Assembly: GCA_963756875.1 (NCBI GenBank) | Contig: CAVWPA010000001.1 | Span: forward strand, 256,001-320,000 | Length of the DNA stretch: 64,000 nucleotides | Origin: an uncultured Verrucomicrobiae bacterium | GTDB taxonomy: Bacteria; Verrucomicrobiota; Verrucomicrobiia; Chthoniobacterales; UBA10450 | Direction of reading: 5' to 3' | Shown: positions 22,037 to 45,062 of the stretch, piece by piece | Layout of the letters: the number at the start of each line of letters is the position of its first letter | Position numbering within the stretch: the first letter of the stretch is position 1 | Notes under the pieces: generated by a model | Seen by the model: only the letters and a program-made list of their open reading frames with translations | What the model was told of the DNA's origin: nothing | Databases searched by the model: none | Made by a program: the position numbers and the translations under genes

Positions 22037-22073
22037 ACAAATTTGCCAAAACAGAGAACTGCACATTCACAAT

Positions 22074-22697: not shown

Positions 22698-23352
22698 ACC
22701 AACCGTTATCTCAAGAGTCGCCGGGGCATTGCTCGGTTTTACGGCCCTGCTGATGACTGCGGCACCGGTGGGGGCGACTGTCACGATCAACTTGGAGGCG
22801 GCAGTGCTGTTCCAGAGCGATGGCACTACTGCAATTCCGATGGATTCGTTGATTCAGCTAGTAGCCAGCACAACGGATAGCGCGGTTACACTTCCGTCGA
22901 CAACAAGCTTCACCGGCGGTTCAGCCGATGATGTCATCCTTGCCAGCTTCGGAAGCAACAATGCCGGTGGACCTGGAAGTTTCCTTCAGCCCATCATCTT
23001 TAGCCTTACTGGAAACCTCAATACTGGTGACGAACTGATGTTGCGCTGGTGGCCTTCGTTGACCGTTAGCTCATCGACCCCCGGAACGGGCGCCACCTTC
23101 GGACAGTTTAGGACTGACGCCGTGGAAAACGGTTCCAACATTGCTTGGGTTGTGCCCGCCGATGGCTCGACCGTGGACCTGAATTTCAAGGACTTGGCTT
23201 TTGGCGGCACGGAACCAAATTCGGCGGGCACAGCCAGCTTCAGCACGACGGCGGTTCCAGAGACGTCCACGGTCTTGTGCGCAGGCCTTTGCGCAGTGCT
23301 TCTGCTCGCTCACGCGGCGCGCCGCCGTCTAGTCGCTGCGAAGAAAACGTAA
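22681..23352 (+). CDS. PEP-CTERM-like surface protein (VPET variant), paralogue of the upstream gene
   Basis: Shares SLIQLVASTTD, FTGGSADD, LRWWP and FGQFRTDAV; ends AVPETST + TM + RRR. Confidence 0.85.
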   Translation: MLKKDKPTVISRVAGALLGFTALLMTAAPVGATVTINLEAAVLFQSDGTTAIPMDSLIQLVASTTDSAVTLPSTTSFTGGSADDVILASFGSNNAGGPGSFLQPIIFSLTGNLNTGDELMLRWWPSLTVSSSTPGTGATFGQFRTDAVENGSNIAWVVPADGSTVDLNFKDLAFGGTEPNSAGTASFSTTAVPETSTVLCAGLCAVLLLAHAARRRLVAAKKT

Positions 23353-23462: not shown

Positions 23463-24243
23463 ATGAATATCAAAATTTCTCTCCTTGTCCTTTCTCTTGG
23501 AGCAGCGCTTGCCGGCGCGATCTTCGCCGAATCCAACATCGTCGCCGAAGACGACGCCAGCGACTCCGCTTACAAGCGGCGGCTGGGACAATAGTAAGAA
23601 TGGCGGACACGGCTTCAGTAACTGGACGCTCACCACCGACGGCAACGACAACGAACGCCATTCCGGTTTTTACATTGCCGACGTCAAAAACAACGCGGAC
23701 CTGAACAGGGTCGCAAAAAATGACAAGGCATTCGGCGTTTTTGCCAACGGTTTCGGCTTCGAACAGGCCGTTGGTTATCGTGGCTTCGAAAAACCGCTCC
23801 AGGTCGGCGATTCTTTTTCGTTCATGATGGAGAACGGAACTTTCGTGAAAAAGTTCGACCAGGATGACCCGACGCCGGGATCAATCGGCCTCACTCTCCG
23901 CAGCGGCAACGCGAATTCGTCCGTCGCCGATTACAACAAGGACGTGATCCTTGAGTTCGGTTATTACCAGGGCAAAAATAATTACCAAATCTACGATGGG
24001 ACCGAAAATGCAGATTCGGGCGTCGCTTTTGTCGATTCGGGCATTTCGGTGACCGTGACGATTACCGGCCCCGATACCTACGACCTCGAAATACAAACGA
24101 TGGGCGACAAAAAAGTGACCAAGCTTCCGGGACGGAAATTGAAAAGCAGCTCGCCCATCGAAAGCTTCGCCATCTTCGACCGCAACGGAGAAAGATACGA
24201 CGCCTTCTTCAACCAATTTCAGGTCAGCCATGAATCAAAATGA
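23463..24243 (+). CDS. Secreted protein with an unassigned domain ('domain X'); 1-nt frameshift near 23574
   Basis: MNIKISLLVLSLGAALAGAIFA signal peptide then EDDASDSAY/SGGWDN...; homologous to 44120..44915. Confidence 0.75.
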
Positions 24244-24257
24244 TTCGTGGCTGAAAG

Positions 24258-24680
24258 CGCCAAATCCCAAAACCCAAATTCCAGGGAAGCTCCAACAATC
24301 CAAACCTCAAAAAGCGCGCGATGCTGTCGTTGCTATTGGACATTGAAGTTTGGAACTTTCTTGGGGCTTGGCGCTTGGAACATGGAGCATTTTCACGCCG
24401 GCGTGACCCAGGTTTAGAGCGCAAATGTTGTAGCCACGGCCCTGCGGGCCGTCTTCGCATGTGCGACTATCAGGAACAGACCGGCCACAGGCCGGTGGCT
24501 ACAGCGGCATTTTCACACCGGCGTGAAAAGCTCCGAGTTCCAAATCCCAAGCACCAAGTCCCAAGGAAGCACTAAGCTTCAAACATCAAGCGCCAATCAG
24601 ATGGGCGCCGGCTGCTGGATTTTGCTGATTGGAATTTGAAGCTTCCCTGGTGCTTGGTGGTTGGAACTTGGAGCTTTAGC
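24258..24680. repeat. Composite: two inverted 7-nt-repeat elements around a TGTAGCCACGG REP
   Basis: CCAAATC/CCAAGCA-type tracts facing TTGG-type tracts; REP at 24428-24504 flanked by direct repeat CATTTTCAC(G/A)CCGGCGTGA. Confidence 0.8.
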
Positions 24681-24745
24681 TGAGGCGGCACACGAATCGA
24701 ATTTCGCTTCAAAATAAGCGACGACTGTGAGCTAATACTACTAGT

Positions 24746-26141
24746 GTGATTAAACCGCGCCTCAGCTTCTGGCAGATCTGGAACATGAGTTTCGGATTCC
24801 TCGGCATCCAGTTCGGCTGGGGTTTGCAGATGGCTAACATGAGTCCCATCTACAAATACCTCGGCGCAAGTGACGAGCAGATCCCTCTTCTTTGGCTCGC
24901 TGCGCCGCTCACCGGATTCATCGTGCAACCGATCATCGGCGCGATGAGCGATCGCACCTGGGGACCGCTCGGCCGGCGGCGGCCATACTTCCTCGCAGGC
25001 GCAATTCTCAGCTCGCTTGCCCTGGTCCTCATGCCGAACTCGGGCACGCTCTGGATGGCAGCCGGTCTTCTCTGGATCCTCGACGCTTCCATCAACATTT
25101 CGATGGAACCGTTCCGCGCGTTTGTGGCCGATAATCTGAACGAACACCAGCGCGCCACCGGGTTCACCATGCAAAGTTTTTTCATCGGAGTCGGTGCGGT
25201 AATCGCAGGCATCCTTCCATGGGTTCTGAAACATTGGTTTGCAGTAAGCAACGAAACTGGTGGCACGACGGCCATCCCGCCCAACGTGAAGATCGCGTTC
25301 TATGCCGGTGCAGCCGCTTTTTTCGGCGCGGTGCTTTGGACCATTTGCACCTCGGGTGAGTATCCTCCGGAGGATTTGGCTGCGTTCCGTCGCAAACGAT
25401 CGGAACGCAGCGGGCTCGCCCATCTGGTTCGGGAAATTCCCGATGCGTTGCGCGAGATGCCGCGAACGATGAAGTGGCTGGCCCTCGTCCAGTTCTTCAC
25501 ATGGCTGGGGTTATTTTGCATGTGGCTCCATTTTTCAAACGCTGTTCCCGTCGTCTTCGGCGCTACCGACACGAATTCGCCGCTTTTTAAGGCCGGCGCG
25601 GAATGGGCCGGCGTTTGTTACGCGCTCAAAGATGGCGTCACGTTTGTTGCGGCATTCGCGCTGATGGCTTCGAGCGTACCGTTTCGACCGCCGGCATATT
25701 CATTCTATTTGCCTGACGCTCGGAGCTCTCGGCCTTCTCAGTATCGGTTTCATCCACGGCGAATCGCAGAAGGATTGGTTGTTAGGCTCGCTAGCCCTCG
25801 GCGGCGTCGCATGGGCCTCGATTCTCTCGATGCCTTACGCCATGCTCGCCAGTGCGCTTCCGCCTCAGCGCATGGGCGTTTACATGGGCATTTTTAACTT
25901 CTTCATTGTTCTGCCCGAAATTATCGCCGCGCTGACTTTCGGTCCGCTGGTGAAAAATTTCCTGGGCGGCAATCTCGTTCATGCGGTCATGGCCGGCGGC
26001 GTCTTCATGCTGCTGGCGGCAGTCATCACCCTTTTTGTTCCTTACACTCAGCTGGCAACAGAGCGGCTGGAGGAAGTCGCGGAAGAAGAAGGCATGTTGC
26101 CGACCGCCACCCCGCCCGAAACCCCGATCGTTTCCGAGTAG
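24746..26141 (+). CDS. MFS sugar (maltose/sucrose-type, SLC45/MalT-like) transporter; frameshift near 25680
   Basis: [59 protein letters not shown]. Confidence 0.88.
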
Positions 26142-26157
26142 TCACTGCTAACGTGGC

Positions 26158-29028
26158 ATGATCGTCCCTCCTCGGCCTGCCGCCCCAGGCATTTGCAAAC
26201 GTAAACCCAAGGGTAATATGGAACGCGCCACTACCGCGATGGCATGTAATGTGACCGATGTTCCGTGGGGCGCACGCGCCCTCGCGTGCTCGTTTCGGCG
26301 CCCTGGCCGAAACGTCTCCCTGCAAAGTTCGCAATGGCGGGGGCGCCATTGCCAGCACGCGAGGCGCGTGCGCTCCCCGGAATTCGCGGCGAGGGCAGGC
26401 GCCGGTGCCACACGCGTTGCTGGATTTATCGGTATTGTTCTGTTTGCATCGGTGGGCATGTCTGCTGGCGAGAGCTTGCACACACAAATCATTTCCGGAT
26501 CGGCCGGCGCGAAAATCACGCTTTCCGTCTCCGATGCCGATTTTTCGATCGAATATCGAGCGCCGTATTTGGTTACGGGCAAGAGCGCTGTTTATGTCGC
26601 GCTTGGAACGCATCGCGAGATTGGCTCCGCAGTGATTCCATTTCAACGCAATCAGGAGGGTTCGACCGTTTTTCTTCCGTTCAAAGCCGATTTGCTTGCT
26701 TATGCGAGGTCGGGTTCCTGTCTCGAGCGAAAATGGGAAAAATGGAAATGGAACGAGGCTAAAAGTTCGACCGCTAACCACGTCGAGACCGGAGAGGGAA
26801 CATGTACATTGCGACTTCCACGCTCTCAATTTGGCGACGCGAAAACGGTCGATTGCGCGATCTACGCAAAGGACCTCTCTCAAAACGATGGCTGGGGAAC
26901 ATTTCTGGGCTGCAGCGATCCCGCTGTCGAGCCGGGAACGGGCGACAGATACATTCCGCACTATCTCGAGATCAATCTCGATCCTGGTAGGGACGCCGCG
27001 CTGCGGGGTCCGGTCGGCGCAGCGCGCCGACCCTACCAATTCGCGGTGCAACGAGCGCGTCTTGGCGGGACGAAGCTCAGGATTTATCAATTGTTCGTCC
27101 GTTTGTTCGGAAATACGAACGAGAACAGAAAAGAAGACGGCACCATCGCGGAGAACGGTGTTGGGAAATTCAACGATATCAATGACGCGGCGCTAAGATC
27201 GTTGCACGATTTGGGCTTCAGCTGCATCTGGCTGACCGGAGTTTTGCAGCAAGCCACCGCCACGGATTACTCGAGCATCGGTCAACCGGCGGACGATCCC
27301 GATCTGCTCAAAGGACTGGCCGGAAGTCCGTATGCCATCAAGGACTACTTCGACGTGTGCCCGGATTACGCGCGGGACCCGGCGAAACGTCTTGATGAAT
27401 TCAAGGCGCTCCTGAACCGCATCCACAAGCACGGCATGAAAGCGGTGATCGATTTCGTTCCGAATCATGTGGCGCGCAGCTACAGTTCCGATGTAAAGCC
27501 GGAGCTAAACTTCGGCACGAAAGGCAATAACGGCGCGGGCGACGACACTTCGATTTTTTTCGCGCCTCAGAACAATTTCTTCTATTTGAAACCGGATGCG
27601 AGCGGCCCTCCGCTTCACCTGCCGAGTTGCAAAAACGGCGAGCCGATCAGCCCAACCTGCAAAGCAATCGCGAAGCTTGGAGGGACGACCGAAGCCAGCC
27701 CGCCGGGGCGGGTGTCGTCCCAAGATTTGGGACGGGACAGCGCCCGTCCCTCCACGTGTGACGGCTTGTTCGATGGCGAAATGAAATTTGGCCGCGTAAC
27801 AGGCAACAACGTCGTGAGTTGGACGCCGTCGATCAACGATTGGTACGAAACTGTTAAACTCAATTACGGTTACGATTTCACCGGTGGCTCAAACGGCGCG
27901 CGCGAATATCCAAACGCGGTCACACCCGACAAAGCGGTTCCCGATACCTGGAAAAAAATGGACCAAGTCCTTGCGCATTGGCAATCAATGGGGGTCGACG
28001 GATTTCGCTGCGACATGTCGCACATGGTTCCCCCCGCGTTTTGGAACTGGGCGATCGCCAAGGCGCGCGCGCGGAATCCCGATGTGATCTTTATCGGGGA
28101 GGCTTACGACAACGACCCGGCCAAGGTTCCGGGCGTCGATCCGGTCATTTCCCAACTTCAGGGCGGGAAATCGAACGTCATGTTCTATTTGCTCGATGCG
28201 GGATTTAACGGCGTCTACGACGATCCAACTTATCGCGCGATCAAGAAAATCTATGAAGGTCCGGGATGGGCGAACGATATCGATGCAGCGCGTCCGGACG
28301 ACTTCATTTTCGAGAACTCGATACGTTACGCCGAAAACCATGATGAAGTTCGGCTGGCGGCCAAGTCGCAATGGGGCGGAGTTGGGAGACAAGCGGGCCC
28401 GGCGATTTGCGCAATCCTTTATGGACTCTCGCGAGGGCCGGTCATGCTTTACAACGGCCAGGAAGTGGGCGAGCCGGGCGAGGGGATCGAAGGCTTCGGC
28501 AGCAGCGACGCGCGCACTTCCATTTTCGATTATTGGTCGATGCCGGAAATGGTGAAATGGGTGAACGATCACAAATACGACGGAGGCCGCCTCTCGCAGG
28601 AACAGAAACAACTTCGCTCTGCTTATGGTCGTTTGATGAATCTGCTAAGCCAGCCGGCGTTCCGCAATGGCATCTGTATTCCGCTGAATGCGACCAATCG
28701 GGACAATCCGGATTACGGCCGGTTGCCTAACGAACAACCAAGCGGTCACTGGTTATACAGTTTTCTGCGATACGATGTGCAAAGTGGCCAGAGGTTTTTA
28801 GTCGCAGTCAATCTTCATCCCACGACTGCGCTCAAAGACATTCATGTCCGTCTTCCGGACACGATATTTGCCAAACAAGACCGGCAAACGCATGTCCGGG
28901 TGGTGGACCGTTTGAATCCCACTCCGCTTGCCGACATCATATCGACGATCGGATTTTTGCAGGATTCAGGAGTTCCCATTGCAGAGCTGCCCCCTCTGAG
29001 CGTAGCGTATCTCGAGTTGAAGCTGTAG
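26158..29028 (+). CDS. GH13 alpha-amylase-family protein (start uncertain; signal-like stretch near 26410-26465)
   Basis: IYQLFVRLFGN, GSPYAIKDY, DFVPNH, DGFRCD, IGEAY, ENHDE: catalytic D/E/D present. Confidence 0.9.
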   Translation: MIVPPRPAAPGICKRKPKGNMERATTAMACNVTDVPWGARALACSFRRPGRNVSLQSSQWRGRHCQHARRVRSPEFAARAGAGATRVAGFIGIVLFASVGMSAGESLHTQIISGSAGAKITLSVSDADFSIEYRAPYLVTGKSAVYVALGTHREIGSAVIPFQRNQEGSTVFLPFKADLLAYARSGSCLERKWEKWKWNEAKSSTANHVETGEGTCTLRLPRSQFGDAKTVDCAIYAKDLSQNDGWGTFLGCSDPAVEPGTGDRYIPHYLEINLDPGRDAALRGPVGAARRPYQFAVQRARLGGTKLRIYQLFVRLFGNTNENRKEDGTIAENGVGKFNDINDAALRSLHDLGFSCIWLTGVLQQATATDYSSIGQPADDPDLLKGLAGSPYAIKDYFDVCPDYARDPAKRLDEFKALLNRIHKHGMKAVIDFVPNHVARSYSSDVKPELNFGTKGNNGAGDDTSIFFAPQNNFFYLKPDASGPPLHLPSCKNGEPISPTCKAIAKLGGTTEASPPGRVSSQDLGRDSARPSTCDGLFDGEMKFGRVTGNNVVSWTPSINDWYETVKLNYGYDFTGGSNGAREYPNAVTPDKAVPDTWKKMDQVLAHWQSMGVDGFRCDMSHMVPPAFWNWAIAKARARNPDVIFIGEAYDNDPAKVPGVDPVISQLQGGKSNVMFYLLDAGFNGVYDDPTYRAIKKIYEGPGWANDIDAARPDDFIFENSIRYAENHDEVRLAAKSQWGGVGRQAGPAICAILYGLSRGPVMLYNGQEVGEPGEGIEGFGSSDARTSIFDYWSMPEMVKWVNDHKYDGGRLSQEQKQLRSAYGRLMNLLSQPAFRNGICIPLNATNRDNPDYGRLPNEQPSGHWLYSFLRYDVQSGQRFLVAVNLHPTTALKDIHVRLPDTIFAKQDRQTHVRVVDRLNPTPLADIISTIGFLQDSGVPIAELPPLSVAYLELKL
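26266..26379. repeat. GGGAGCGCACGCG-family palindromic element
   Basis: GGGGCGCACGCGCCCTCGCGTG...CACGCGAGGCGCGTGCGCTCCCC. Confidence 0.8.
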
Positions 29029-29083
29029 AGGCAGGCGTGTCGCCTGCATCTTCGGCTCGCAGCCGACACGGCTGCCGCTACAG
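29023..29083. repeat. REP-like doublet between convergent GH13 genes
   Basis: CTGTAGAGGCAGGCGTGTCGCCTGC...GCAGCCGACACGGCTGCCGCTACAG; its TAG is the upstream stop codon. Confidence 0.85.
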
Positions 29084-29091
29084 AAGAATGC

Positions 29092-30921
29092 TTATTTCAC
29101 GCGAAACACCGTGCCGGTCAGCGCCGGGAGAACCAGTTCGGTTCCATTTTTAGCCACTTGTGTCTTTACCGCTCCCGTTTCGCCGCGGGTGATAAAGATG
29201 GGAATAAGATGTTTTGCGGCGATCTGAAGCTGCATTCGGGCCGCGTTGTCACTGCGGTTGAAAGCGATAATTAATCTCTCTTTGCTCGATTTTCGGCTGA
29301 TAACGATTGTGCGCTGGTCGTCGTCCGTGGCCAAAACCGTAAAATCGCCGTGATTGAGCGCGTCGTGCTTATGTCGCAACGCGATCGCCCGTTTGTAGAA
29401 TTGGAACAGGTCGTCATCGAATTTTACTTCGTCTGCGTCGCGCTCGCGACCGCGCGGATCGATCGTCTGCGCCTCATACGTTTTGTCTCGCCAGACCATC
29501 GGCATCCGGTCGTCCGGATCGCCCCCGCCCCACATGCCGGCTTCGTCTCCGTAATAAATCATCGGCGCACCGACGTACGTCATTTGCAGCAACACAACCA
29601 GTCGCTGGATGTTTCGTTCGCGCTCGTTTGGCTTGCGAATGTCATACGTCGGCGACGAAGCCGGGCTGTTGTGTTGATTAAAATCAAATTCCTGGTTGCC
29701 GCTGTAGACCGTGCCTGCGCCATTCACGATCATCGATGCCAGGCGATCGGTATCGTGCGAGTCGACCAGGTTTTGCATCACGGCGGCAGTGGATGGAGGG
29801 AATTGTTTTCGCCGGTCATCGAGAAGGCGCGCAAATGTCGATGGCGAAATGTTGTTGTCGATCAGGAATCCCTTCACCGGGACGGCAAATGCGTTGTAAT
29901 TCATCGACGCGGAGAATCCGCATTTTTTTACAAAGCCTGTCGCGTTTTTCCAAACTTCCGCCGTGGTATAAACGTTTGGATTTAGTTTTCGAACAAACGC
30001 GTTCCAATCCGACCAAAATTTGGCCGGCCGCTCGTCCGCGGCGTCGAGCCGCCATCCATCGATTCCGTCTGCGCGATTGCCGTTGGGTCGCATCCAGCGC
30101 CGGGTCGCCTGGAAAATGTAAGCTTTCGGTCCCGGGGCCATGTCTTTTCCGTCGGCCGAGGCGGCGAAGATCGGCAGCGTCATGTGTCCCCACCAGCCCT
30201 TGTAACTGAATTCATTTCGCTTCGTGTTCGGATCGTCGAAACTCGTGATCGCGTACCAGCTTTTATAGCGGGAATGCGCCTGATTTGTGCGGATGTCCTT
30301 GAACGCAAAGAAATCGCGGCCGGTATGGTTAAAAACGCCGTCGATAATCACGTGAATGCCGCGGGCGTGACATTGTTTGAGTAGCTCCAGGAACAGTTTG
30401 TCCGCGGCAGTCCATTGCCATGCTTTGGGATCTTCGGTTTCGCTGTTGATGATTTTGAGGTCGCCCTGCGGATCCGGCCCAAAATACGGGTCGATGTGGT
30501 GGTATGTGTTGCCGTCGTATTTATGCAGCGATTCCGAGTAGAAAAGCGGATTGAAATAGATGGCGTTGATCCCGAGGTCGGTCAGATAATCCAGCTTGTC
30601 GATTACGCCCTTGAGATCGCCCCCATAGCGCCGATCGAGCACGCCATCCTTGTAGAAATCAGGTCCGAGTTCCTTTTCCCACTCGTCGCGCGAATACCAG
30701 TCCGCTATCCAGGATGAAATGCGCCACTCGGGGCCGGGCTTGATCGGATACTCGAGCGAATCACGCGTCGGATCGTTGGTTGGATCGCCGTTGCAGAAGC
30801 GTTCCGGGAAAATCTGGTAAAAGACCGCTTCGGCCGCCCAGGGCGGCGAGCCCGCCGTGTCGGCCCTGCCCGAAAGCGTGAAGAGGCAGAGTGCCGCTAA
30901 AACGTAGAAATAGATGCGCAT
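29092..30921 (-). CDS. Exported GH13 neopullulanase/cyclomaltodextrinase-like enzyme
   Basis: Signal peptide; YQIFPERF, YGGDLKG, DGVFNH, DGWRLD, AEVW, SHD, YYGDEAG. Confidence 0.92.
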   Translation of the reverse strand: MRIYFYVLAALCLFTLSGRADTAGSPPWAAEAVFYQIFPERFCNGDPTNDPTRDSLEYPIKPGPEWRISSWIADWYSRDEWEKELGPDFYKDGVLDRRYGGDLKGVIDKLDYLTDLGINAIYFNPLFYSESLHKYDGNTYHHIDPYFGPDPQGDLKIINSETEDPKAWQWTAADKLFLELLKQCHARGIHVIIDGVFNHTGRDFFAFKDIRTNQAHSRYKSWYAITSFDDPNTKRNEFSYKGWWGHMTLPIFAASADGKDMAPGPKAYIFQATRRWMRPNGNRADGIDGWRLDAADERPAKFWSDWNAFVRKLNPNVYTTAEVWKNATGFVKKCGFSASMNYNAFAVPVKGFLIDNNISPSTFARLLDDRRKQFPPSTAAVMQNLVDSHDTDRLASMIVNGAGTVYSGNQEFDFNQHNSPASSPTYDIRKPNERERNIQRLVVLLQMTYVGAPMIYYGDEAGMWGGGDPDDRMPMVWRDKTYEAQTIDPRGRERDADEVKFDDDLFQFYKRAIALRHKHDALNHGDFTVLATDDDQRTIVISRKSSKERLIIAFNRSDNAARMQLQIAAKHLIPIFITRGETGAVKTQVAKNGTELVLPALTGTVFRVK

Positions 30922-31011
30922 TGCAACGGGTAATGTTGAGTTGTAGAGGCGCTCGCAGCGGCGAGCGCCTGTTTACTCTGGTGCGGCGCTTCACACAAAC
31001 GCCGCTAAACT

Positions 31012-34000: not shown

Positions 34001-34895
34001 ATTCCAGAACCCAACCTTGTATTTGATTGTTGTGCCGAGCGGCTCGTTTAACAGATTCGGACCGGTCGCGACCCACCACATGGCGGTCCCGGCTGCGCTT
34101 CCGGTGCCGCCATTTTGTCCGTTGTTGTTGTCCGGGTGATCGTAAATGAAATTCGACCACCTGCGTGGAGCCGCTCCGGCCGTGCCCGGAGATCGTGCCG
34201 GCACCGGGTCGGTCCATCGGTCGTATAATAAAGAGCGCCGTTCGTGGCCCATCGCGTCGACAAATCGTTGATGTCGCCGATGTAACCGATCTTCGCCCAG
34301 AACTGGATATCCGAGCCGGAGTTCGCCCGATTGTTCGCGTGAAAAATCCAGCCGGGCCGATTGCGAATCGTGAACGGAAACGTTGCAGCGGTACTTTGTC
34401 TGATTCGTGACATCGCCGCCGTGATCGCCTGAGCCGGTACGGCGCATAAATATAGGTGTTCTCCGCGCCGCGAATCGAAAGTCAGATAGAGATAATATTG
34501 AATGACTTCGTTCGCGCCGATCCCCGCACTGGCCCGGCGTGAAACTGCGCCTGCCAATACTGATTGTTATCGATAGTCACGACCTGGCCATAGACGTGTC
34601 GAATGGAACGAAGTTCCAGGTACCTTGGGACGCGCCTTTGTAATAGAGCTCCGCCGCCCGTCTGGTTCGCGTGTGCCATAGGAGTTATTGAATTTTTGGA
34701 CGCCGCTATAAATCGTGATGCCTTGTGTGTTGCTGATCTCCATCCACGGATCGCGCATGTGCGTGTCCCGCTCAGATCGGTGTTGTTATCCGGGATATGC
34801 CAGGCGTTCGCGGCGTGGCCGAATCGGATGGGCAAAGCTTGCCAAAGCCGATGAGCGCAAGGACCGAAACACGAAAAAACAGATCTCCCTTTCAT
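31012..34895 (-). CDS. ~1290-aa secreted multidomain GH13 enzyme (several frameshifts)
   Basis: Contiguous ORF pieces; GSPYS, DAPFNH, DGLRAD, MAES, SHDE; DxDGDG/GTNP repeat and C-terminal FY domain. Confidence 0.82.
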
Positions 34896-34903
34896 ATTCC
34901 TGA

Positions 34904-37900
34904 TTACTTATGGCACAGACTTACCTGCAGTTTATAGAACCGCGGTTGCGCTGATGTCGGCGGTGAACCGGTGTCGGTTCCGTTGTCGATGTAGGTAATC
35001 ATCGACCCCGTTCCCGAAATTGCGTTGCCCGCCGGCATCCATGGACCGTTGATGCTGCCGGCATAAAGAATTTGATAATTGCGATCGTGAATCGTCGAGA
35101 ACGTCAGGTCGACGGTCGATGGAGTCGGCCGGGTAATGATTAACTCGGCTTTGGCGCTGTCGGCCAGGACCGGGTTCGTCCCAAGAATGTATTCCTGCAG
35201 ATTGGTCAGGCCATCGCCATCCGGATCGTCGCCCGCGCGCGAAAGATCGCCGGCCTGGGCGGTTGGGTGACCGAAATACTGCTGGCTCCACCAATCGGGA
35301 ATTCCGTCGCCGTCACTGTCGTAGGTGACTGCCGCGCCCGTCTCAAATCCCAGTGCGAAATTCATAGTTCCGTTTCCTTGCAACTCTACCTGTTGCGTTT
35401 GCGCCTGGTTCCGCATCGCGACCGTATCGAGGACGTTGGCGTCCGAGTCGTTGCGCCGTCGCATTGAACGAAGCTCCAGAATAACCCGCGCCGCCAAAGC
35501 GCAGATATGCTCGCACCATGCGGCTTGGATTGGTGTTCAACAAATCGACTTCGCTCGAGCTGGTGATCAAGTTTCCGAGGTGCGATTGGCCCGCGGTCAA
35601 AAGATCGAGAAGATCCGGCGACAAGCCGAAGCGCACAAAGAGCTGAACAAATCCAGTCGTTGTATAGCTCGCCTGCAACTCACTTTTTCCGGGGGCAAGC
35701 GTAATCGTTTTGGAAATGTTGCCGTCGGAACTGGTAAATTTCCAGCCAACGCTGGAAGGCGCCGGCGCGACGGAGTAATAGTCGTTCACGTACTGGAACG
35801 TCCCGTTGCCCATGGCGTCGGTCTTGGCGAACCAGTCCTTGAACCCGGATGTTCGATAAGCGTTGACCGCAGCGCCGTTGAAATTTCCCGCGCCTTCTTC
35901 TTCGGTTTCCGATCCCGCATAGCTCGCAAAATTTCCAAGCACCTGTGAAACAGAGCCCGTGTCGATATCGCGCAACCAGGCGCCGATCAGGCGGCCACCG
36001 AGCGATTTTGCCGGTCCGTTTGTCGGGCCACCGCTTTCGAAAACGGCCAGCAGCCGATCGTTGTAGAGCAAATACTCATTTTCTCCGTCAAGATCCACGT
36101 CGGCCTGCTCGGAAACTGCGCTGCCATTGTAAGTGCCGTTGTTCGCCGCTTGCGCCCAGGTATTGACCCGCGCGTAAATCGCCGCCTCGCGCGTTTGCGC
36201 CTGGGCGATCTTCGAAAATCCGGCGAGATTTTGGAAGCCGGTGTCCGGATAGATATAGGCGCCGGTGCTGAATTTGCTCAGATCGTTCGCTGTCTCATTA
36301 TGAAACGCGGTCTCGAATTCCGAGGCGTGGATTGTCGCGCGGCCGAGCGAAAGCAGGCCTGTGTTTGTCGGTCCGGGAACGATTCCACCGAGCGCCTGCC
36401 AGCTGGTCAGGACAATTCCCGCCGGGTTGGGCGCGCCATCCAACCAGCCGTAAGGCGTTGGCATGGCCACGCCGGTCCGGATATTGAAGACCTTGCTGCT
36501 CAAACTTTCTTCGAGCGCCGAACCGAAATACCAGTTGTCGTAATTTTCCTCGTCTGCGTGGTCGATAAAATCCTTGGCCACATTTGGAAGATTCAGATTG
36601 CTGCCGCGGTTCACCGTACCCCATTGCGTTGCGGTGCCGCCGTTCGAATTGAAGCTGACCTGGTTGTTCGCAATCTGATCGGGCGTGACGATCTCGATCC
36701 ATGGATGGCTTGCCAGCCAGCGAATGTTCTTGTCGTAGGCGTCCGCACTCGCCTTTGTCGTAAAGTCTTCCCACTGATTAATGAAAATGACGGCCTGGTC
36801 CTGCTGACTATCGCGCGTTTTACGGCTCAACAATTGCCGCAGCAGGATGGGCAGACCGTTATCGTCGTTCTGGAGCAAGTAAGCGCCTACAGCATCGTTG
36901 ATGACGAATGCTTTCGTGTTGTTAATCTGGTTAATGCGGTAGCCATCGTCGCCGAGCGCCGAGTTGCGGCCGAACCATTTGAAGATATGCCGCATCTGAT
37001 CGACAAACGTGTACTGGAATCCAAGATCGGTGACCTTTTGAAGCACGCCGGGATCGGAGACGCGTTCGGGTGTCCAAAAGACGGTGCTGGAAGGCGCGTG
37101 CCCATAAATCGTGGTTAGAAAATCGTTGGCCAGTTCGACGTTGTCGGTGTTGTACGCGGTCGGGAAATAGTCGAGCATGTGGTCGGAGAATGTGCTGCCG
37201 ATCAGATCGATGGTTCCGTTGCCGATCAGATTGGAGATGCGGGCGTTGAAAGCCGGGCCATCTCGAAAACTATTTGGCGAACCGGCATCCACCTTTGCCC
37301 ATTGGATCGCGGAGGCGAGTGGCGGCGTGATGTGCAGCGTGACCGGCACGTTAAAAGCCTCATGCGCGTCGAGTGGGCGATAATAGCCGCCTCCCAGGCC
37401 ATTATTGATCAGATTCTGCGTGACGCTCCCAGGTTGAATCGCCTCGTTCCCATGGATAATGCTCACCACTTTCACCCGTTTGCCGCGATCGTTGTCGGCA
37501 TTGATCCCTACCCATTGAGTTAGCATGCTGTTGGCACCTGCAATATTCGGCTGATCCTGCCAGTAATCCGACGCGATCTTATCGTTGCGGATCGAATCGC
37601 GAATATCCGAGCGACCGCCGATGTCTCCCGCTCCAACCGGATTGTCCTGGGTGCCGTCCCTCGTCGTGAACACCTGGTAAAGAAGATTGTTCGGATCTCC
37701 ATTCCAGCCCGCATCGAGCAATGCCTGGCGGCTGATCGAGAATTCGACCGCGTCGAGATCGGAATTGTAATACGCCTTCTTAAATCCGTTCGCGGTGTTT
37801 TGATCGCGCGCGGTGACACCGAATTGGGCGAGGTCCTGGCCGATTGCCGTCGAATGGGTCGGCGAATTTTTGTCCCAGAGATAAACACGGCCAACGTCGG

Positions 37901-40900
37901 ATTGGTAAGCCACGACCACGGCCTGCCATTTCAAAGCGGTTCCGGTATCCACCTGATCGGGCAGATTGTATTCGCCGGTGCCGGGGTTTCCGAAGTTGAT
38001 CGCAACGTATATATCGAGGTGGCCCTGTTCGGCGTAAGCCGCCAAATCCTCCATGTCCACGCGGAAATAGAAATTGCCGTCGCCGCCTTGCGCGACCGCG
38101 CCACCGTCATGGGCATAGAACGCGACCATATCGCGCGACGAATCGAATCCATCGTAGGCATGATACACGTCGCCCTGATTGAAATTGATTCCGTCACCGT
38201 CATACGGATCGAGAGCAATCAAATCGTTCTCCGTCCAATCTGTGAGTTCGTGTTGGTTGGTCACCGCGCCGACGGTCGTAGTCGAGCCGGGCCCGATTGT
38301 GATTGCGCCCGGCGGCGGAGGCGGCGGTGTTCCCGCGACATTCGGGTCCGTGTTGGCCAGATATTCCAGGTAATTGCTGACGCCGTCTGCCATCCGGATC
38401 GCCATTGTCGCCGTTGTCCGTGGTCGTAATGAGTTTGCCGGTGTGAAGATTGTAATGACCAACTACGCCGTCATCGAACGGATCGAGGTTATGCTGAAGC
38501 TTCCATCCGTCCGGCAGGTTCGTATCCGTGGTGCTGAACCGTCGCGGATCGGTTTCGAGCCAGATCACATCGAGCTGATCGGCTCGAATGTTTCCACCTG
38601 GGCGGAAGACATTGTTCAGTTTCGTCTTGTCCAGCCTCGTTGAGGCGTAGGTGAGCCCGTCCTTTGGATCGACGAAGGTCGAGCAGAAGTTGGAGTAATA
38701 GAACGTGACCAGTTGCGACCCTGGCGCGGAACCGGTGACCGTGACATTCTTCTTGAAATCGTCCAGGGTGCCGAGCACGACGAAGTTGCCCTGTCCGTCC
38801 GTCTGATTCCGATCGATGATTGCGAGGTCGACAATTCCGTTATGATTGGCGTCTTCATTGCCATCGGTGATTCCGTCGCCGTCCGTATCCGCGTTGTTCG
38901 GATCGGTCTCCAGCCACACCGCATTTGGCGCGTGGGCCAACACCTTGGCCTTGTCGATCTTCGAAGTGTTATAGACGGTCGGCGGATGCGCGACGGCGTG
39001 AAGCACACCGCCGCCATCCGGAACGCCGATGTCGACGCGGCCGTTGTGAATCAGCCGGTAAGTAGCCGGATTATTGTTGCCGTCGAGAGTGATGGCGAAC
39101 GTGCGGTCTTCAAAACCGTCGTACACAGCGTCGTCATCTGTGTCGGGTTTGTTCGGATCCGTCATTGACCCGGCGATCTGGTCCGTGCGCGAGTTGTTCA
39201 GGTTATACGGCCAGGGATCGAAGAAGCTGTAATCCTCGCCGGCAGGCGGACCGCCGTTGTCCGTCGTGTTGTAAACCGGTGGATCAAGATCCGATTGGAA
39301 ATTTGGGACCCCGTCGCCGTTCGTATCGGTGTTGACGTTCGTATCGCCAACGGCGGTTCCCCAACCGAGTTCCAACCCATCAGACAGACCGTCCCCGTCC
39401 GTGTCGGGATTTAACGGATCGGTCTTGCCGGAAATTGCCCAAATGTGGACTTGATCGTTCGTCCAGGTTTCCGAGTTGGTCGTCGGCAACGGAATCGCCG
39501 TCGTTTCGATCGGCGCGGATGTTGGACCGTAGAGGCCGAGTCCGTCATCATCGAGATCGTCCTTCCCTGAGTTGGCATCGACGATTTGGCGGAAAACAAC
39601 CTGTGCATTTCGCGCGGCTGCAGCGGTGCCGCCGGGAGCTGTCACCGTGGAAACAAATTGATAGTTACCTTCGCTCACGTTGTTCCAGGTAAAATTCCAG
39701 AACTTGCTGGTGCCGTTTGTGCTTGGATTTGGCGTACTGGAAGTGCTCGGGTTGAGGGTGATATTTCCCGAGCCAATCGTGAAATTGATCGCCACGTCGG
39801 TTGCATCCGTATCGGTTTCGACCTGTACGGGCACGGCGCGCTGATCGGCGGTTGGCGACGCGACGTCGGGCAATATGATGACGTACGCCTTGCCGTCCGA
39901 ATCGACTTCCGGCGGCGTAACAATAACATCTCGAACGACCGGCACTGCGCGGGCCTTCACCAGCCGGGTCGCTTCCAAGCGTCGGATTGCCCGGATCGGT
40001 ATAAGTTACATCGATGGTATGAAGAAAATCGGGCTGATCGTTGTACAAGTTCGGGAGCTGGAAAGCCAGTTCGTGGTAATCGCTGGTGACATCGTAGTTG
40101 ATGGAATAATCCGTCCGGCTCTGCGCAACGCCGTTGGCGGAGGAACCAGACTCGCTGCTCGCTAATTTGATCAGGAAACGGTTGATCAGTGTTTGGGTGT
40201 CGGGGCCGTCGGCCAGCGATTTGCTGAACCAGACTTTCATGACGTAATTGGAATCGACGACGTCGCCATCATTAGGCGGGAAACGCAATGAACATCCGGG
40301 TATTCGGCCCGGCCGTGTTCACCTGTCGCATCAGCGTCGTGTAATGGCCTGCCGCGTCGCTTAAATTGAAATCCTTGTATTCAGCGGAGGACAGTTCGCG
40401 CAGCCGGACCTGGATCGTCGCGGTGCCGGTCGAAGGGATATTATTGTAGTTGAATCGCCATTCGCGAGGATAGATGCTGGTGACAGCGGGATTTGGCGTC
40501 ACTTCCGTCGCCATGCACCCAGGTGGTCGCGATGTTGTTGTTCCAGACGCCGTCGCCGTTCAAGTCCTGGAACGGTTCGCCCGGCATCCCAGGTGCCGTT
40601 GCCATTGCTGTCCGTAAACGGCTCGAATCCGATCCCGTTGCCGCCCTGGGTGTGAGTTGCCGTGTCGTTGTTCGACGCGATCGCCATCGTCAATGTGATA
40701 CCACACCTCGGTCACACTCGGGTCGGTCCGAACGACAACGCCATAACGCGAACCGCCAATGGTTTCGTTCTCGGCCGGAAACTTGATTTCACCCTGAGGC
40801 GACTGCGCATCGTAATAGAACGTCTGAACAAACGTGTTGTAGATCGAGCTGCGCAGACCGTTGCCCACGCCGGAGCTGTCACGTTTCAGAAATGCGCGGG

Positions 40901-43765
40901 CGCGCAAAACGTGAAAACCTTCGCTCAAGCCGGTCTGGGTCGAGCCATAATCGTCGTGCGGATAAATCAGGGCGGTCGTTCCATTGAAATGCGGAATCTG
41001 GAACGTGGTCAGCATTTTCTTCTTTTGGGCAACGGCGTCCGGCATTGCCTGGGAACACGCTGCTCACCGGCACGCCGCCGACGGTCGATTTGTAGATGCC
41101 CATCTTGTATTTAATCGGGCCGGCCGGGCGCGGCGTGAGCGTGGCTCTCCACCAGTTATCGCGGTCGCCGCTGGTGTGCGAGTAGTGCATCTCGGCCACT
41201 TGGGTCGTGCCGATACCCGTACTCCTCCCGCGCCCTCCGGATTCGAACCGTCCGTTGTGTAATAGACGAAATGCCCGAAACCCGCGCCCACGTAATTCGT
41301 TTTGCCCCAGAAATCCAACGCACTCGCCGTTATCGCGGAATTGGGTCGAAGGAAGGCCGGAAATGTTTCCGGAAACCGGGCCGTCCACCTATGCGTGCGG
41401 GATCGTGAAACAGAAACGACGCGACCGTGCCGCCCTGCGTATCGAGACTGGCGTTACCGTGCAGATTTGAACTAACATCGGTCGGCGGGCTGGTGCTGGT
41501 GTCGTAAGTGTCGGCCCCGGACGGATCCGAGGGTGTCGTTGGTGCTGTCTTTGGCCGCGAATTTTTCCGGATACTCGCGCTCGACAAATTGCGGTTGCTC
41601 GTAACCGAGAAAAACATCGGTGGAAAGTCCCGGAGGATGATCTCGTTTCTCGCCGGTGGTCGGTCCGAGCGGAATCTGCGAGTTGATGTCCACTCCGCCA
41701 TCGAGCTCGATCAGAATATTTTCCGCGGAGCCGTCTGCCCGGGCGATAAAACTGAAGGTCCGATCGCGTCTGGTCACGCGCGGGATCGTGTAACGGATAG
41801 GAATAACTGCCCGGAACGGCGTCCGGCACATGTAAGGATTGAAATTCGGATCGCCGTCCGGTCCGTCTTTGCGGAGGTAGGTCAACGTAGATGTCGCCTG
41901 CCCGCCTTGCAGGATGGTGATCGGTTTCCCGCCGCCCAGCGACCAGAGGTCCGATTCCTCGGGGTTGCGCCATGAAAAAACATAATAGCCGCCTTTTGGC
42001 ACAATGACTGCCCGGATCAGATAGCTGAGACCGCTTCCTCCGTCGCCTGTCGTGATATAAAAGCCGGTCATGGAATCGCCGCTCGGCAACGGTCCGCTGG
42101 CGTACTGCCACAAATAAGCGCCCGGTGGAAAATCCGTGCGCAGAGTTGCCGCGATTGCTGCCGAAATCGTTGTTGATGCCGATGCCGTTGGCGTAATTGT
42201 CGTTGATCAACACCAGCGCGGTGACGCCGTCGCCGTCCGACATGGTTGCGATTCTCGCGTTTATCGATTCTCTCGTAAGCCACCAGATCGCCATCGCTCC
42301 AGCGGCCGACTTGATAACCGCGGCGCGAACTGATTGTGAATGTAGAGAAGGTTCGGGATCAGCGGATCGCCAAACTGGCCGAGAAAATTGGTGTTCGCGT
42401 GCCGCGGAAACGCGCCGCCGCTCTGGCTTAAGCGTTTGGGACTGATGGTTGCCGTCGGTGTAAACGGAACCGAGCCCCTCGCGGGTCAGATAGAGCGCAA
42501 ACTGCAGTTCCCGGCGTGATAGCGTAATCGTTGTCGTGACTTTGGGCGTACATCACACTGATCCCGCTATCGTCGCCGCCGAACCCGTAGCTGCCGGGCT
42601 GATCGAGTCCCTGCAAGCCGGCCGACGGATTGCCCAGGATGCCATTCATCGCGCCTTGGAGCGGATTATCCACCAGACGCATGCCGACGTTGAAATAATC
42701 GCCGTAAGGCGGCGGTTGGCCCAGATGTTCGCCGAACATCATGGCGTTGTGGCGCGGCTTTTCCGTGTCGAAAAGCGACTCGCGCAAATTCACGTTCGAA
42801 CCCTGCGGAGTTGAATTGAATTTCGAATCGTTAAATCCGCGCGTCAGATTGAACTGCAACTGCGCCTGTCCGAGGTAGCCGTACGTCGCTGTAGTCCTTG
42901 TCCGCCCCGTAACTCGCGCCGAAGAAATCGTAGGGGACATGTTTGACCGCATCGAGCCGCAGCCCGTCGGCCTTCGTCCGGTCCATCAGCCAGCGCGCGC
43001 TCCGGTTCAAGAAATCCTGGACGTATTCGCCGTAGAAATCCGCGGTTGTCGGCCAGCATCTGGGCAGTGATGCCATTGTTCGGCCCGAATCCGACGTACG
43101 TCCCGTTCGGCAGGTAGCAATAGTACTCGGGATTGTTCGGTTGGCGGACGAACTTGATCTTCGGAAACGTCGAGCCCTCGGTGTAACCGAAATTCTGGTT
43201 GGTCGTGCCCGGTTCCTGGGCGAGGTCGATCAGATCGGAGAAAGTTCCGATGTTGCACCTGCCAGGTGTCGTTCCAGTTGGAGATGTTATCCCATTTCCG
43301 ATAAAAGCCTTCCTGGGTTAAGCGGAGATGAAAATCTTCCGGCACAAGCCCGGGATAAATATCGATCGGCGTGTTGGCGTCGTAGCCCGGCACATCGAAC
43401 GCGTTATGATTCATCACGTTGTCGAAGTAAACGCGAATGCCAAAGCGATGCGCGATTTCGATCATGCGGAGCAGGTCTGCTTCGGTCCCGTAGCGCGTCC
43501 TGATCGAGCCTCGCTGATCCTTGCTGCCAAGATCGAAGCGATCGAACAAATCGTAACCGACCGAGAGTCCGCCGCTGCCTTTTGTGGGCGGTGGCAGCCA
43601 AAGTGAATCGTAACCGGCCTCGGCCAATTCCGGCATCTTCAACGCGATCTCGTTCCAACTCGTGTTGAAATACTGGAGCATCGCCTCTCCGCGCGAGGAA
43701 GCGGGCAGAAGCAGGGCCGTGGCGCAGCTAAGGGCGAGGAGAACGCGACCGGCAAAAAACTTCAT
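34904..43765 (-). CDS. ~2950-aa secreted GH13 alpha-amylase + GH57-like fusion with TSP3-like Ca-binding repeats (many frameshifts)
   Basis: Signal peptide; LQYF, WLPPP, DNVMNH, DGLRLDAVKH, FGEH, QSHD; DTDGDG repeats; HGNE, FWTPERV, TFVD; DVDLDGENE C-domain; FY tail. Confidence 0.8.
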
Positions 43766-43923
43766 TAAATGGGATTCAAAGTTGGTCCGGTGAGGCGTTT
43801 AGGGGTCGAGCGGGAGCGCTCCAAAATAGTAGCGTTTTTCCCCGGAAAAATCCCGCTAAATCTTCGGAAATCTTTGCGGAAAATGGGCAGTTGTCAGGGG
43901 GACGTGGCAACGCGGATTCTGGG

Positions 43924-44056
43924 TCTGGGGAGCACAGGCCGCCGGCCTGTAGCAGTCGGCCGCTGGCCGACTGCAATTTGTGGCAACGGTCTTGCGAATT
44001 TGAGATGGTTCGCGGCAAGCTGCCGCGAACAACAGGCCAGCGGTCTGTGCTCCCCG
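43924..44056. repeat. GGGAGCAC-family palindromic element
   Basis: GGGGAGCACAGGCCGC...GCGGTCTGTGCTCCCC. Confidence 0.75.
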
Positions 44057-44065
44057 GAAGAAAAG

Positions 44066-44094
44066 AAAAGCCCCGCGCGAACGCGGGGCTTTTT
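44066..44094 (-). terminator. Rho-independent terminator (could act in both directions)
   Basis: AAAAGCCCCGCG-CGAA-CGCGGGGCTTTTT, 25 nt after the PEP-CTERM stop. Confidence 0.85.
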
Positions 44095-44119
44095 AGGAGA
44101 AACGAATCTGGAGTTGATC

Positions 44120-44915
44120 TTAAGCGCGACGGCGTCGGACGAACACGAACGCACCCAAAAGCGATGAACCCGTCAGCAGGAACGAGAGCGTCGCCGGCTC
44201 GGGAACAATCGCCATGTTATTGAAGAACACATTGTTGTTGTCGCCATTGCCAGCATTGAAGTTGAACAGGCGGACCTGCGCGATTCCCTCTCCGCCGTTG
44301 GCGGTTTGATCAATGAGCGTGCCCCCGCCAGTGTCACTGTTGCCGTGCATATCGGAGAACGTGCCAGTAAAGGTGGTGGTCCCGGTTAATGTGAACGACA
44401 AATTGAACCCATCACCGCTGAAATGGAATGCTCGGCGACAGATCTTGTTGGCCACTAGCGTCGTTCGTCTTCCAAGTATTCGTGCCGCCGCCAATGTAGT
44501 AAATTTCAAACAGGGTTTGTCCGGAGGAGTTCTGAAGGCTAAGGCCGACCGTTGAACCGGTATCTTGATAACCCTGGTCGATCTGGATCGAAAAGGTTTG
44601 ACCGATCGACAAATCGCCGTTGAACGGACGAGTTGCATTAGCCGTGTCGCCAGTGTTTGCAAACAATCCCCAGGCGCCGTCGCCCGTCGAATTAATTCCG
44701 AGAGAGCCCCCTGCATTTGTTGTCGAGTCTCCAATAAAATGGCCGCTGTTCGTCGGGCCATCCTGAAAAACCCAGTCTCCGCCCCAGCCCGTACCCTGGC
44801 CGCCCGTCCAGTTACCGCCATAATTGCCGGCATTATCAGAGGCGTTGCTTGCCGCGTACCCCGCGGCGGTCATCAAGCCTAACGACACAATTCCCAAAGC
44901 CAATTTCTTAATCAT
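44120..44915 (-). CDS. PEP-CTERM protein carrying 'domain X' (frameshift near 44430)
   Basis: Signal peptide; ASDNAGNYGGNW...; C-terminal VPEPAT + TM + RRRRA; GGAG RBS. Confidence 0.85.
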
Positions 44916-45062
44916 AATCTATTACTCCGTATTTGCTCCCGTGTTTGAGCACTCTTTTGATCAAAAATCGGTCGCCAAGTCAACACTAAATTCCAGAAAT
45001 TTATGGATATTACCGATACGTCGGATTTCGCCGGACGCTGGGGTGTTTTAGGGGAGGAACCG

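Follow-up and report, generated by a model that had tools for sequence, protein, structure and literature searches.

A candidate alpha-glucan utilization cluster with a giant GH13/GH57-fold enzyme and without SusC/SusD or MalEFGK in a Chthoniobacterales-type verrucomicrobium

Positions 23467-44918 of a 64,000-nucleotide stretch of DNA (hereafter the window) from an uncultured Verrucomicrobiae bacterium (genome G000; 2.69 Mb in three contigs, 87.6% complete) carry seven genes in two convergent units, three on the + strand and four on the - strand, which abut at 29028/29092. The catalytic domains encoded by these genes, the permease that accompanies them and the conservation of their order in related genera argue, with a confidence slightly better than even, for an alpha-glucan (starch, glycogen or pullulan) utilization cluster of a Chthoniobacterales-type verrucomicrobium, without SusC/SusD or MalEFGK and with frame breaks that are most likely assembly errors. 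An earlier reading of the same DNA from its letters alone (the sequence-only reading) had put forward the alpha-glucan locus, and its inventory of four GH13 domains with intact Asp/Glu/Asp motifs, one GH57-like domain, a maltose/sucrose-type MFS (major facilitator superfamily) transporter and two 'domain X' proteins, in two convergent units and with no SusC/SusD or ABC system in the window, was borne out by profile searches and structure comparison.

Organization of the locus and its catalytic domains

Five of the seven genes are broken in the window by non-triplet insertions or deletions (indels), and the giant enzymes are found in a single frame only in relatives. Domain limits are given here in residues of the orthologue from G021, the intact reference relative, which belongs to another genus of the same family (locus L023 is identical to G021, and hence not independent). 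On the - strand, the genes for the giant enzyme, for a 'middle enzyme' of ~1,300 amino acids (aa) and for a 626-aa GH13 protein form a string in which neighbors overlap or abut. The features of the locus are the following:

23467..24243, + strand: small, secreted 'domain X' protein with a concanavalin-A-like beta-sandwich (262 aa in G021, with an N-terminal signal-like helix; 78% identity to the G021 orthologue)
24722..26141, + strand: MFS permease, GPH/sucrose-symporter-like (458 aa in G021; in two frames here, 24731-25897 and 25665-26141, with indels at ~25661 and ~25682)
26152..29028, + strand: GH13 enzyme, 958-aa open frame (homology from 26365; N-terminal hydrophobic signal-like segment; PF00128)
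29092..30972, - strand: neopullulanase/cyclomaltodextrinase/maltodextrin-glucosidase-like GH13 enzyme, 626-aa open reading frame (ORF; 609 aa from the ATG at 30921; signal-like N-terminus; PF00128)
31012..34907, - strand: 'middle enzyme', ~1,300-aa exported GH13, whose C-terminal end is formed by a thrombospondin-type-3 (TSP3) repeat and the shared beta-sandwich (split over at least four frames here; intact orthologue at L017:456-4355)
34904..43798, - strand: giant multidomain enzyme (2,928 aa in G021; ATG at 43765; 24 non-triplet indels here; intact orthologue at L017:4367-13150)
42251..43693, - strand: giant, N-terminal GH13 alpha-amylase catalytic domain (G021 residues 25-502; PF00128)
39977..42143, - strand: giant, middle region with no Pfam match (G021 residues ~538-1255)
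38389..39978, - strand: giant, Asp-rich TSP3-like repeats of calcium-binding type (G021 residues 1255-1782; 84% identity to G021)
35454..38387, - strand: giant, GH57-fold region, with an N-terminal beta-sandwich, a (beta/alpha)7 barrel plus helices (~36138-37484) and a C-terminal beta-sandwich (PF03065)
34907..35452, - strand: giant, C-terminal module of two TSP3-type repeats and a beta-rich domain of ~85 aa that reaches the stop codon
44066..44093, - strand: terminator-like hairpin between the PEP-CTERM gene and the giant gene (12-bp stem, eight G-C pairs, T-rich tail; consensus match only)
44123..44918, - strand: PEP-CTERM 'domain X' paralogue (280 aa in G021; one +1 insertion at ~44428 here; PF07589)

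Promoter-like sites in the locus number 5, against a mean of 9.6 in shuffled sequences, and no promoter is proposed.

All four GH13 proteins match the Pfam profile PF00128 above its cut-off (22 bits), and each of them shows, on inspection by eye against the family consensus, regions I-IV together with a nucleophile Asp, an acid/base Glu and a stabilizer Asp. The 626-aa enzyme (174.4 bits; IDGVFNH / GWRLDAADE / TAEVW / DSHDTD) is, by sequence, a clear relative of neopullulanase, TVAII, cyclomaltodextrinase and MalZ, matching the TVAII/neopullulanase structure 1jf6 at E = 3.5e-73 and the NCBIfam models NF008051 and NF041090 at E ~1e-72. The N-terminus of the giant enzyme scores 29.3 bits here and 41.0 bits in G021, bears the conserved regions FDNVMNH / GLRLDAVKH / FGEHL / SHDND in its translations, and matches the NCBIfam alpha-amylase model NF006970 (E = 7e-36). 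Its nearest solved sequences are the Halothermothrix, Pyrococcus and Bacillus-type alpha-amylases (PDB 3bc9, 1mwo and Bacillus-type entries), which match its first ~90 residues at E = 1e-25 to 1e-13. The two remaining enzymes have divergent GH13 catalytic domains. The 958-aa protein (65.9 bits; IDFVPNH / GFRCDMSH / IGEAY / ENHDE) has as its closest named families the haloarchaeal MalA-type and 3dhu-type alpha-amylases (NF041321, E = 3.2e-19 with the G021 orthologue; PDB 3dhu, E = 1.5e-17), and the middle enzyme (LDAPFNH / GLRADFG / MAESL / MSHDE) reaches 22.4 bits in ORF 31899-33956 and 27.3 bits in its intact G021 orthologue, with weak matches to PDB 3dhu/4gkl. In both the giant and the middle enzyme the PF00128 match is limited to the first quarter of the profile. 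Signal-like N-termini were recognized by eye on all four GH13 proteins, so that no cytoplasmic enzyme is evident in the locus; a GH77 MalQ and further GH13 and GH57 genes are encoded elsewhere in G000.

The giant enzyme consists of ~500 residues of GH13, ~700 unassigned residues, ~530 residues of TSP3-like repeats, ~970 residues of GH57-fold region and a C-terminal module of ~180 residues. The unassigned region has no Pfam match in either the window or the G021 protein; its protein-atlas features resemble those of CBM26 (starch-binding) clusters at 0.80, below the 0.9 level and thus a lead only. The Asp-rich region yields a weak TSP3_bac match and a CglD-like match at E = 1.4e-11.

The GH57-like region exceeds the PF03065 cut-off (35.8 bits against 21.2) over positions 94-182 of the 291 in the profile, a partial coverage that extends to 96-277 in G021. 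A structure model built on a 40-sequence alignment (pLDDT, the predicted local distance difference test, of 81) confirms, as a prediction, the GH57 fold, with a (beta/alpha)7 barrel and a helical part. In the VIA comparison the top 18 rows are all GH57 structures (Z = 20.9-27.4), against Z values of at most 19 for CE4 deacetylases and at most 16 for GH38. The best match is the Thermococcus litoralis 4-alpha-glucanotransferase 1k1x (Z = 27.4 over 489 aligned residues, C-terminal sandwich included; Foldseek E = 1.6e-16), and the Aquifex aeolicus GH57 amylopullulanase (9jlu and others) aligns at Z = 25.7 over 339 residues with a root-mean-square deviation of 3.6 Å. At the sequence level, a profile of the region retrieved zero PDB sequences at E values up to 1, and hhalign against the canonical GH57 of relatives gave a probability of 25%, with an unreliable register in region 4. 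A Glu stands at the position of the GH57 nucleophile (E441 of the modeled piece, within F-W-x-P-E-R-V) in each of the 40 aligned sequences and falls, in that low-probability alignment, on the Glu of W-L-P-E-C in the canonical GH57 of relatives; nearby His, Asp and Gln residues are likewise invariant in all 40.

Homologues of the whole GH57-fold region also occur as stand-alone proteins of ~1,050-1,200 aa (P0218-P0232; ~30% identity, 93-97% coverage), and the module therefore exists outside the Verrucomicrobiota and without the GH13 part. Candidatus Eisenbacteria is the label of one of these proteins, which, like several of the others, bears a FlgD Ig-like domain. The named public homologues of the giant are nearly all 'hypothetical protein', with one JGI record reading 'Glycosyl hydrolase family 57'.

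The C-terminal module extends to the stop codon in 68 of 68 readable loci, and it closes, in G000, both the middle enzyme and a 974-aa GH57-like ORF at C1:391951-394872. The 974-aa ORF (- strand, locus L114) matches PF03065 at positions 3-173 and has similar ORFs in G005 and G011. Further matches of a profile of the module in G000 lie at C3:1512007-1513647, C3:1279308-1279895, C3:1578680-1580680 and C3:254286-255536, mostly at or near C-terminal ends; at C1:696070-699093 the matches lie farther from the C-terminus (residues 50-688 of 1,008). The module may be a recurrent tag on exported proteins of this organism.

The two domain X copies are, as judged from the intact G021 pair (24% identity, pairwise E = 8e-9), distant paralogues. 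The secreted copy has 317 homologues, all 'hypothetical' and without Pfam match, with identities of 68-86% among the 120 listed. Its model (pLDDT 82) adopts a concanavalin-A-like sandwich, and the fold matches (Z = 12-15.5) include carbohydrate-binding domains of sialidases (15.5 and 14.1), GH131, GH16, alginate lyases and L-type lectins. Because this fold class spans lectins and enzymes, 'binding protein' is a plausible label but still a guess. A prediction of the complex between the secreted copy and the C-terminal module of the giant scored 0.00, which counts neither for nor against an interaction. The link of domain X to alpha-glucan genes is supported by rearranged alpha-glucan loci of Terrimicrobiaceae- and Chthoniobacter-labelled metagenome-assembled genomes (MAGs), in which it lies between the middle enzyme and a 958-type GH13 (L027, L035, L037 and L039) or directly after the middle enzyme (L038). 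Immediately 5' of domain X, at 20807-23352 (+), the window encodes a member of the TIGR02597 family (E = 6.8e-78) and two short proteins that terminate in PEP-CTERM or PEP-CTERM-like sequences; at the same place G021 has a comparable trio, in which a 370-aa protein of 26% identity is followed by a PEP-CTERM protein.

The sequence-only reading had cast the second copy as a PEP-CTERM-anchored binding protein. The copy carries a valid PEP-CTERM motif (PF07589, 22.5 bits with a cut-off of 20.7; TIGR02595, 19.6 vs. 16 in G021), and G000 has exosortase homologues (four PF09721 matches), in keeping with PEP-CTERM sorting. The claim is weakened by a fold that specifies no more than the lectin/glucanase class, by the presence of the gene beside the giant in just 4 of 57 loci, and by the strong terminator-like hairpin that follows it, because of which the gene is probably a transcription unit of its own, apart from the giant/middle/626-aa string.

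Conservation across the Verrucomicrobiota

The order and orientation of domain X, MFS and 958-aa GH13 on one side, and of 626-aa GH13, middle enzyme and giant on the other, are identical in G000, G021, G011 and G005, each from a different genus of the same family; of these, only G000 and G021 also have the PEP-CTERM paralogue. Scanning a single genome from each species revealed 128 relatives of the GH57-like region, and the locus counts that follow cover the best 80 of them (tblastn). All 80 are labelled as Verrucomicrobiota sensu lato (Chthoniobacterales, Terrimicrobiaceae, Luteolibacter, Akkermansiaceae, Prosthecobacter, Opitutaceae and Kiritimatiellia), and two are cultured, Cerasicoccus arenae KCTC 12870 and Brevifollis gellanilyticus NBRC 108608. 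The giant has all of its five parts, in colinear order, in 61 of the 80 loci, the other 19 lacking at least one part and being mostly short or located at contig ends. The middle enzyme lies 3' of the giant in 51 of 60 eligible loci, and in 50 cases it starts no more than 1.6 kb from the end of the giant. A 626-type GH13 follows downstream in 19 of 49 eligible loci, whereas domain X and the MFS gene were seen in 7 and 4 of the 80 loci, respectively, counts that are limited by the 10-kb flanks.

Among 400 genomes sampled evenly from the phylum, the region was detected in 44 at E values of at most 1e-30 (27 of 185 genera, counting G000), and the open frames of the giant in these carriers span almost always 2,539-3,383 aa. 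Several genomes (e.g., G148, G266, G104, G139, G370 and G269) harbor two full-length copies of the giant (2,780-3,280 aa) on different contigs. In distant relatives the annotated neighbors are all alpha-glucan related, as illustrated by Cerasicoccus arenae (L082; LacI, GH77, GH13 and GH31) and by an Opitutaceae MAG (L050; LacI and GH13). The possibility that the genes of the locus are merely unrelated neighbors was rejected, given the order kept in four genera and the phylum-wide pairing of giant and middle enzyme.

Uptake route, frame integrity and alternative readings

The permease matches Pfam MFS_1 and MFS_2 and the GPH_sucrose model TIGR01301 (E = 3.5e-31), at 108.6 bits against an equivalog cut-off of 511. 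It is only a distant relative of sucrose symporters, so its substrate is deduced from genomic context, and members of the GPH family are described as transporting varied glycosides (PMC13543919). Pfam scans of the 69 ORFs of the window (26 + 43) returned zero matches to TonB receptor, SusD or ABC families. At the genome level, SusD (PF07980) and the MalE-type SBP_bac_8 (PF13416) have zero matches in G000, which at 87.6% completeness means 'not found' rather than 'absent', and the searches did not extend to SBP_bac_1 (PF01547), PF00528 or LamB-type porins.

From sequence, we infer the substrate, the compartments, the order of action and the cargo of the permease as follows. The ~2,930-aa enzyme (GH13 endo-amylase plus GH57-fold) and the ~1,300-aa enzyme would be exported and attack the polymer beyond the cytoplasmic membrane, most probably on the surface of the cell. 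The exported 958-aa and neopullulanase-like 626-aa GH13s would trim the resulting maltooligosaccharides, the GPH-type MFS permease would import maltose or short maltodextrins into the cytoplasm, and GH77 MalQ and other enzymes encoded elsewhere would finish their breakdown there. The secreted lectin-fold domain X would be a conserved accessory, possibly engaged in glycan binding. The signal-like N-termini speak for export of the large enzymes, whose surface or extracellular location, part of the sequence-only reading, is presumed.

The location of these enzymes is the point on which an alternative, 'selfish' periplasmic mode departs from the scheme just outlined. The large enzymes would then be periplasmic, and the polymer, or sizeable fragments of it, would cross the outer membrane and be depolymerized within the envelope before MFS import. 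Whole-polysaccharide uptake is known among bacteria of the Planctomycetes-Verrucomicrobia-Chlamydiae (PVC) group, the four GH13s have only signal-like N-termini of Sec type, Pfam and NCBIfam recognized in them neither an anchor for the outer membrane nor a tag for secretion, and lipoproteins of SusD/E/F type that would bind glycans at the surface were not found, all of which would suit a periplasmic location. However, a length of 2,900 aa, long Asp-rich TSP3-type repeats and a dedicated C-terminal module look like attributes of a surface or extracellular protein, and the locus offers no candidate channel for the polymer, so that we consider this mode unlikely.

A second alternative assigns the real uptake step to a TonB-dependent transporter encoded elsewhere and operating without SusD, as in Caulobacter or Xanthomonas, which would make the locus the enzymatic half of a known design. 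G000 does encode two TonB receptors, both on another contig than the window, but neither has carbohydrate-related neighbors: one adjoins ferritin, ZIP and cation-efflux genes, and the other adjoins genes for riboflavin synthase, a sugar transferase, an F5/8-type-C protein and alkaline phosphatase. In addition, neither TonB receptor nor SusD matches were found among 76 flank ORFs of 10 distant related loci. In the Opitutaceae MAG, a DUF3450 gene, two MotA/TolQ/ExbB-type genes and a TPR protein gene follow directly after the alpha-glucan cluster (L050:18458-21213). The ExbB-type genes could point to TonB-energized uptake in that lineage and constitute, together with the two receptors of G000, the case for a TonB route, which we nevertheless hold to be improbable here.

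The frame breaks are very probably local consensus errors of the assembly. Protein-level chaining against the intact orthologue detects ~19 frame changes in the giant, and nucleotide alignment with G021 (79% identity) resolves 24 non-triplet indels, comprising 22 insertions (20 of one base and two of two bases) and two deletions. The middle enzyme shows at least three frame changes, and its nucleotide alignment contains as many as 18 non-triplet gaps, most of them in the first 1 kb (33900-34900), which aligns poorly. The MFS gene has two indels near 25670 and the PEP-CTERM gene one at 44428. Relative to G021, the 958-aa GH13 has zero non-triplet indels, and the 626-aa GH13 has zero apart from its 5' end, where the alignment is poor. 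Translated in the frame of G021, the broken stretch of the giant (codons 170-1260) contains no in-frame stop, is 91.7% identical at the amino acid level and has a ratio of nonsynonymous to synonymous substitution rates (dN/dS) of 0.076, against 0.066 for the unbroken stretch. At synonymous sites the broken stretch is much nearer to G021 (dS of 0.61 vs. 1.95 for the rest), a pattern that could stem from a chimeric or poorly polished consensus, or from recombination. Outside the locus, the housekeeping genes guaA (window 439-2086, +; GATase profile 1-105 and 109-189 in different frames) and argJ (window 49373-50709, -; profile 10-222 and 222-372 in different frames) are split as well. Homopolymer error was rejected as the cause of the breaks, the inserted bases lying outside homopolymer runs. 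One of the TonB receptor genes (G000:C3:899660-902987, locus L112) also has its Plug and barrel domains in different frames, and this is another probable indel error.

Several observations weigh against the interpretation of the locus as an alpha-glucan cluster interrupted by assembly error. The indels of the giant are strongly clustered, with 22 falling in the 3.3 kb of 39981-43244 and two in the other 5.1 kb, and many long ORFs elsewhere in G000 are intact, which together imply an error process that is local or patchy. Of 24 other genomes from the family, just 4 contain the giant (a tally that includes the unpublished G002 and G007, both without a match), which makes the locus accessory. The Pfam scans of the window ORFs turned up no regulator. 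Lastly, the position of the proton-donor Asp in the GH57-like domain, four residues before an invariant Phe, is occupied by Gln in the window and in its near relatives, G021 included, so that the activity of this domain is uncertain; the position was set by register with the D-x-E-x-F of canonical GH57 in relatives, a register that is itself inferred. Of the 40 aligned sequences, 21 have Asp at this -4 position, and the other 19 have Gln, Asn or some different residue there. All 19 sequences devoid of the -4 Asp bear an acid two residues later (Glu in 18, Asp in one), and a second acid at -2 is present in just 2 of the 21 that have it. The complementarity of the -4 and -2 acids argues that the GH57-like site is under selection and probably active.

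True decay of the locus in this organism, with the frame breaks as real pseudogenization, would account for the packing of the breaks in two locus genes, the giant and the first 1 kb of the middle enzyme, with neighboring kilobases free of them, and for the open state of most other long ORFs checked in the genome. It is distinctly improbable in view of the absence of stops, low dN/dS and high identity of the broken part of the giant, of a strong insertion bias at non-repeat sites that is typical of consensus error, of the splits in guaA and argJ, and of a completeness of just 87.6% for a three-contig assembly. Remodeling or recycling of the organism's own extracytoplasmic alpha-glucan (capsule or storage polymer), as opposed to use of external starch, would fit the 4-alpha-glucanotransferase that heads the structural matches of the GH57-fold region and the divergent GH13 domains of the 958-aa and middle enzymes, but it is highly improbable for a locus that combines endo-amylase-type and neopullulanase-type GH13s with an importer, encodes zero glucan synthases or glycosyltransferases, and has relatives that add catabolic GH31 and GH77 and a LacI repressor.

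Comparison with known systems

An alpha-glucan utilization cluster of this kind has to be set against what is already described for the phylum. Clusters of carbohydrate-active enzymes without SusCD that resemble polysaccharide utilization loci, possibly served by other transporters, have been reported in Verrucomicrobiota, and that study treats SusCD-less glycan uptake in the phylum as an open question (Orellana et al., 2021; PMC8857213). The general design is hence not new, and the sequence-only reading, which had presented it as a verrucomicrobial arrangement, holds up in the conserved alpha-glucan cluster and in the failure to find SusD or MalE-type proteins; the principle itself had already been published for the phylum. 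As far as literature searches show, what is new is the phylum-wide, unannotated giant combining GH13 and GH57-fold domains, with its constant partner enzyme, its shared C-terminal module and the shifting acid residue of its GH57-like site; no description of the giant enzyme or of the locus was found in the literature, supplements excepted. The marine verrucomicrobial clusters share with the present locus the phylum and the co-localization of glycoside hydrolases with non-SusCD sugar transporters, but they target fucose- and rhamnose-rich sulfated glycans, and the accessible portion of the study does not describe an alpha-glucan cluster with a giant enzyme (PMC8857213).

With regard to catalytic modules, what defines the GH57 family is its barrel together with five conserved regions, of which region 3 supplies the nucleophile (Glu) and region 4 the proton donor (Asp), and GH119 is closely related to it (PMC6037648). 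The GH57-fold region of the giant shares with 1k1x and the Aquifex amylopullulanase the barrel and helical part and the Glu of W-x-P-E-R-V, and with 1k1x also the C-terminal sandwich. Unlike canonical GH57, it has Gln in place of the proton-donor Asp and is embedded in a 2,900-aa protein. As a literature lead only, it is also a candidate member of GH119, a small family that is sister to GH57 and typified by the IgtZ alpha-amylase of Bacillus circulans; a GH119 gene is reported from a spartobacterial (Chthoniobacterales-related) bin (PMC3663571). A bolder proposal, which we advance tentatively and think rather doubtful in its full form, is that the giant represents an undescribed class of verrucomicrobial 'two-engine' alpha-glucan enzymes, a permanent fusion of a GH13 endo-amylase with a GH57/GH119-like domain whose acid has relocated within the motif between clades, and that the C-terminal module (calcium repeat plus beta-sandwich, common to the 1,300-aa enzyme and other exported hydrolases) is a phylum-specific surface-anchor or secretion tag. 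If true, the module would do the job of lipoprotein anchors and SusCD complexes in the Bacteroidota. The GH13 and GH57-like fusion and its shifting acid residue would be of interest for amylase enzymology.

The surface amylases and amylosomes of gut Firmicutes, such as Ruminococcus bromii Amy4 and Eubacterium rectale Amy13K, offer another parallel. They are very large exported GH13s that degrade starch extracellularly and carry numerous accessory modules, and the 958-aa GH13 has a weak sequence match to R. bromii Amy4 (PDB 9qf3; E = 2e-4). Their hosts are Gram-positive and rely on sortase or cohesin-dockerin anchoring and on ABC importers, and we know of no multidomain amylase of gut Firmicutes with a GH57-type second domain.

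Two classical Gram-negative systems also invite comparison. The maltose system of Escherichia coli comprises LamB, MalS, MalEFGK2 and MalQ, with a periplasmic amylase step. The genome of the Chthoniobacterales-type bacterium likewise encodes a cytoplasmic GH77 MalQ, but the locus would import through an MFS permease and not through an ABC system, and SBP_bac_8 was not found in the genome (LamB was not searched). In the Sus system of Bacteroides thetaiotaomicron, an outward GH13 amylase and a periplasmic neopullulanase-type GH13 precede import across the inner membrane, and the 626-aa enzyme is of the same neopullulanase/TVAII type. In contrast with Sus, the window has no SusC/SusD and the genome no SusD that could be found, there are no SusE/F-type lipoproteins and no GH97, and the outward enzymes are of 1,300 and 2,900 aa, with a GH57-fold domain. 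Verrucomicrobiota are abundant degraders of polysaccharides in soil and water, for which the locus provides a simple and well-conserved test case on an easy substrate. The locus does not by itself reveal a new uptake mechanism, and stands as a clear, unannotated example of polysaccharide digestion without SusC/SusD in this phylum. By analogy, it would work like the enzymatic half of Sus or Mal, while fitting the transport design of neither.

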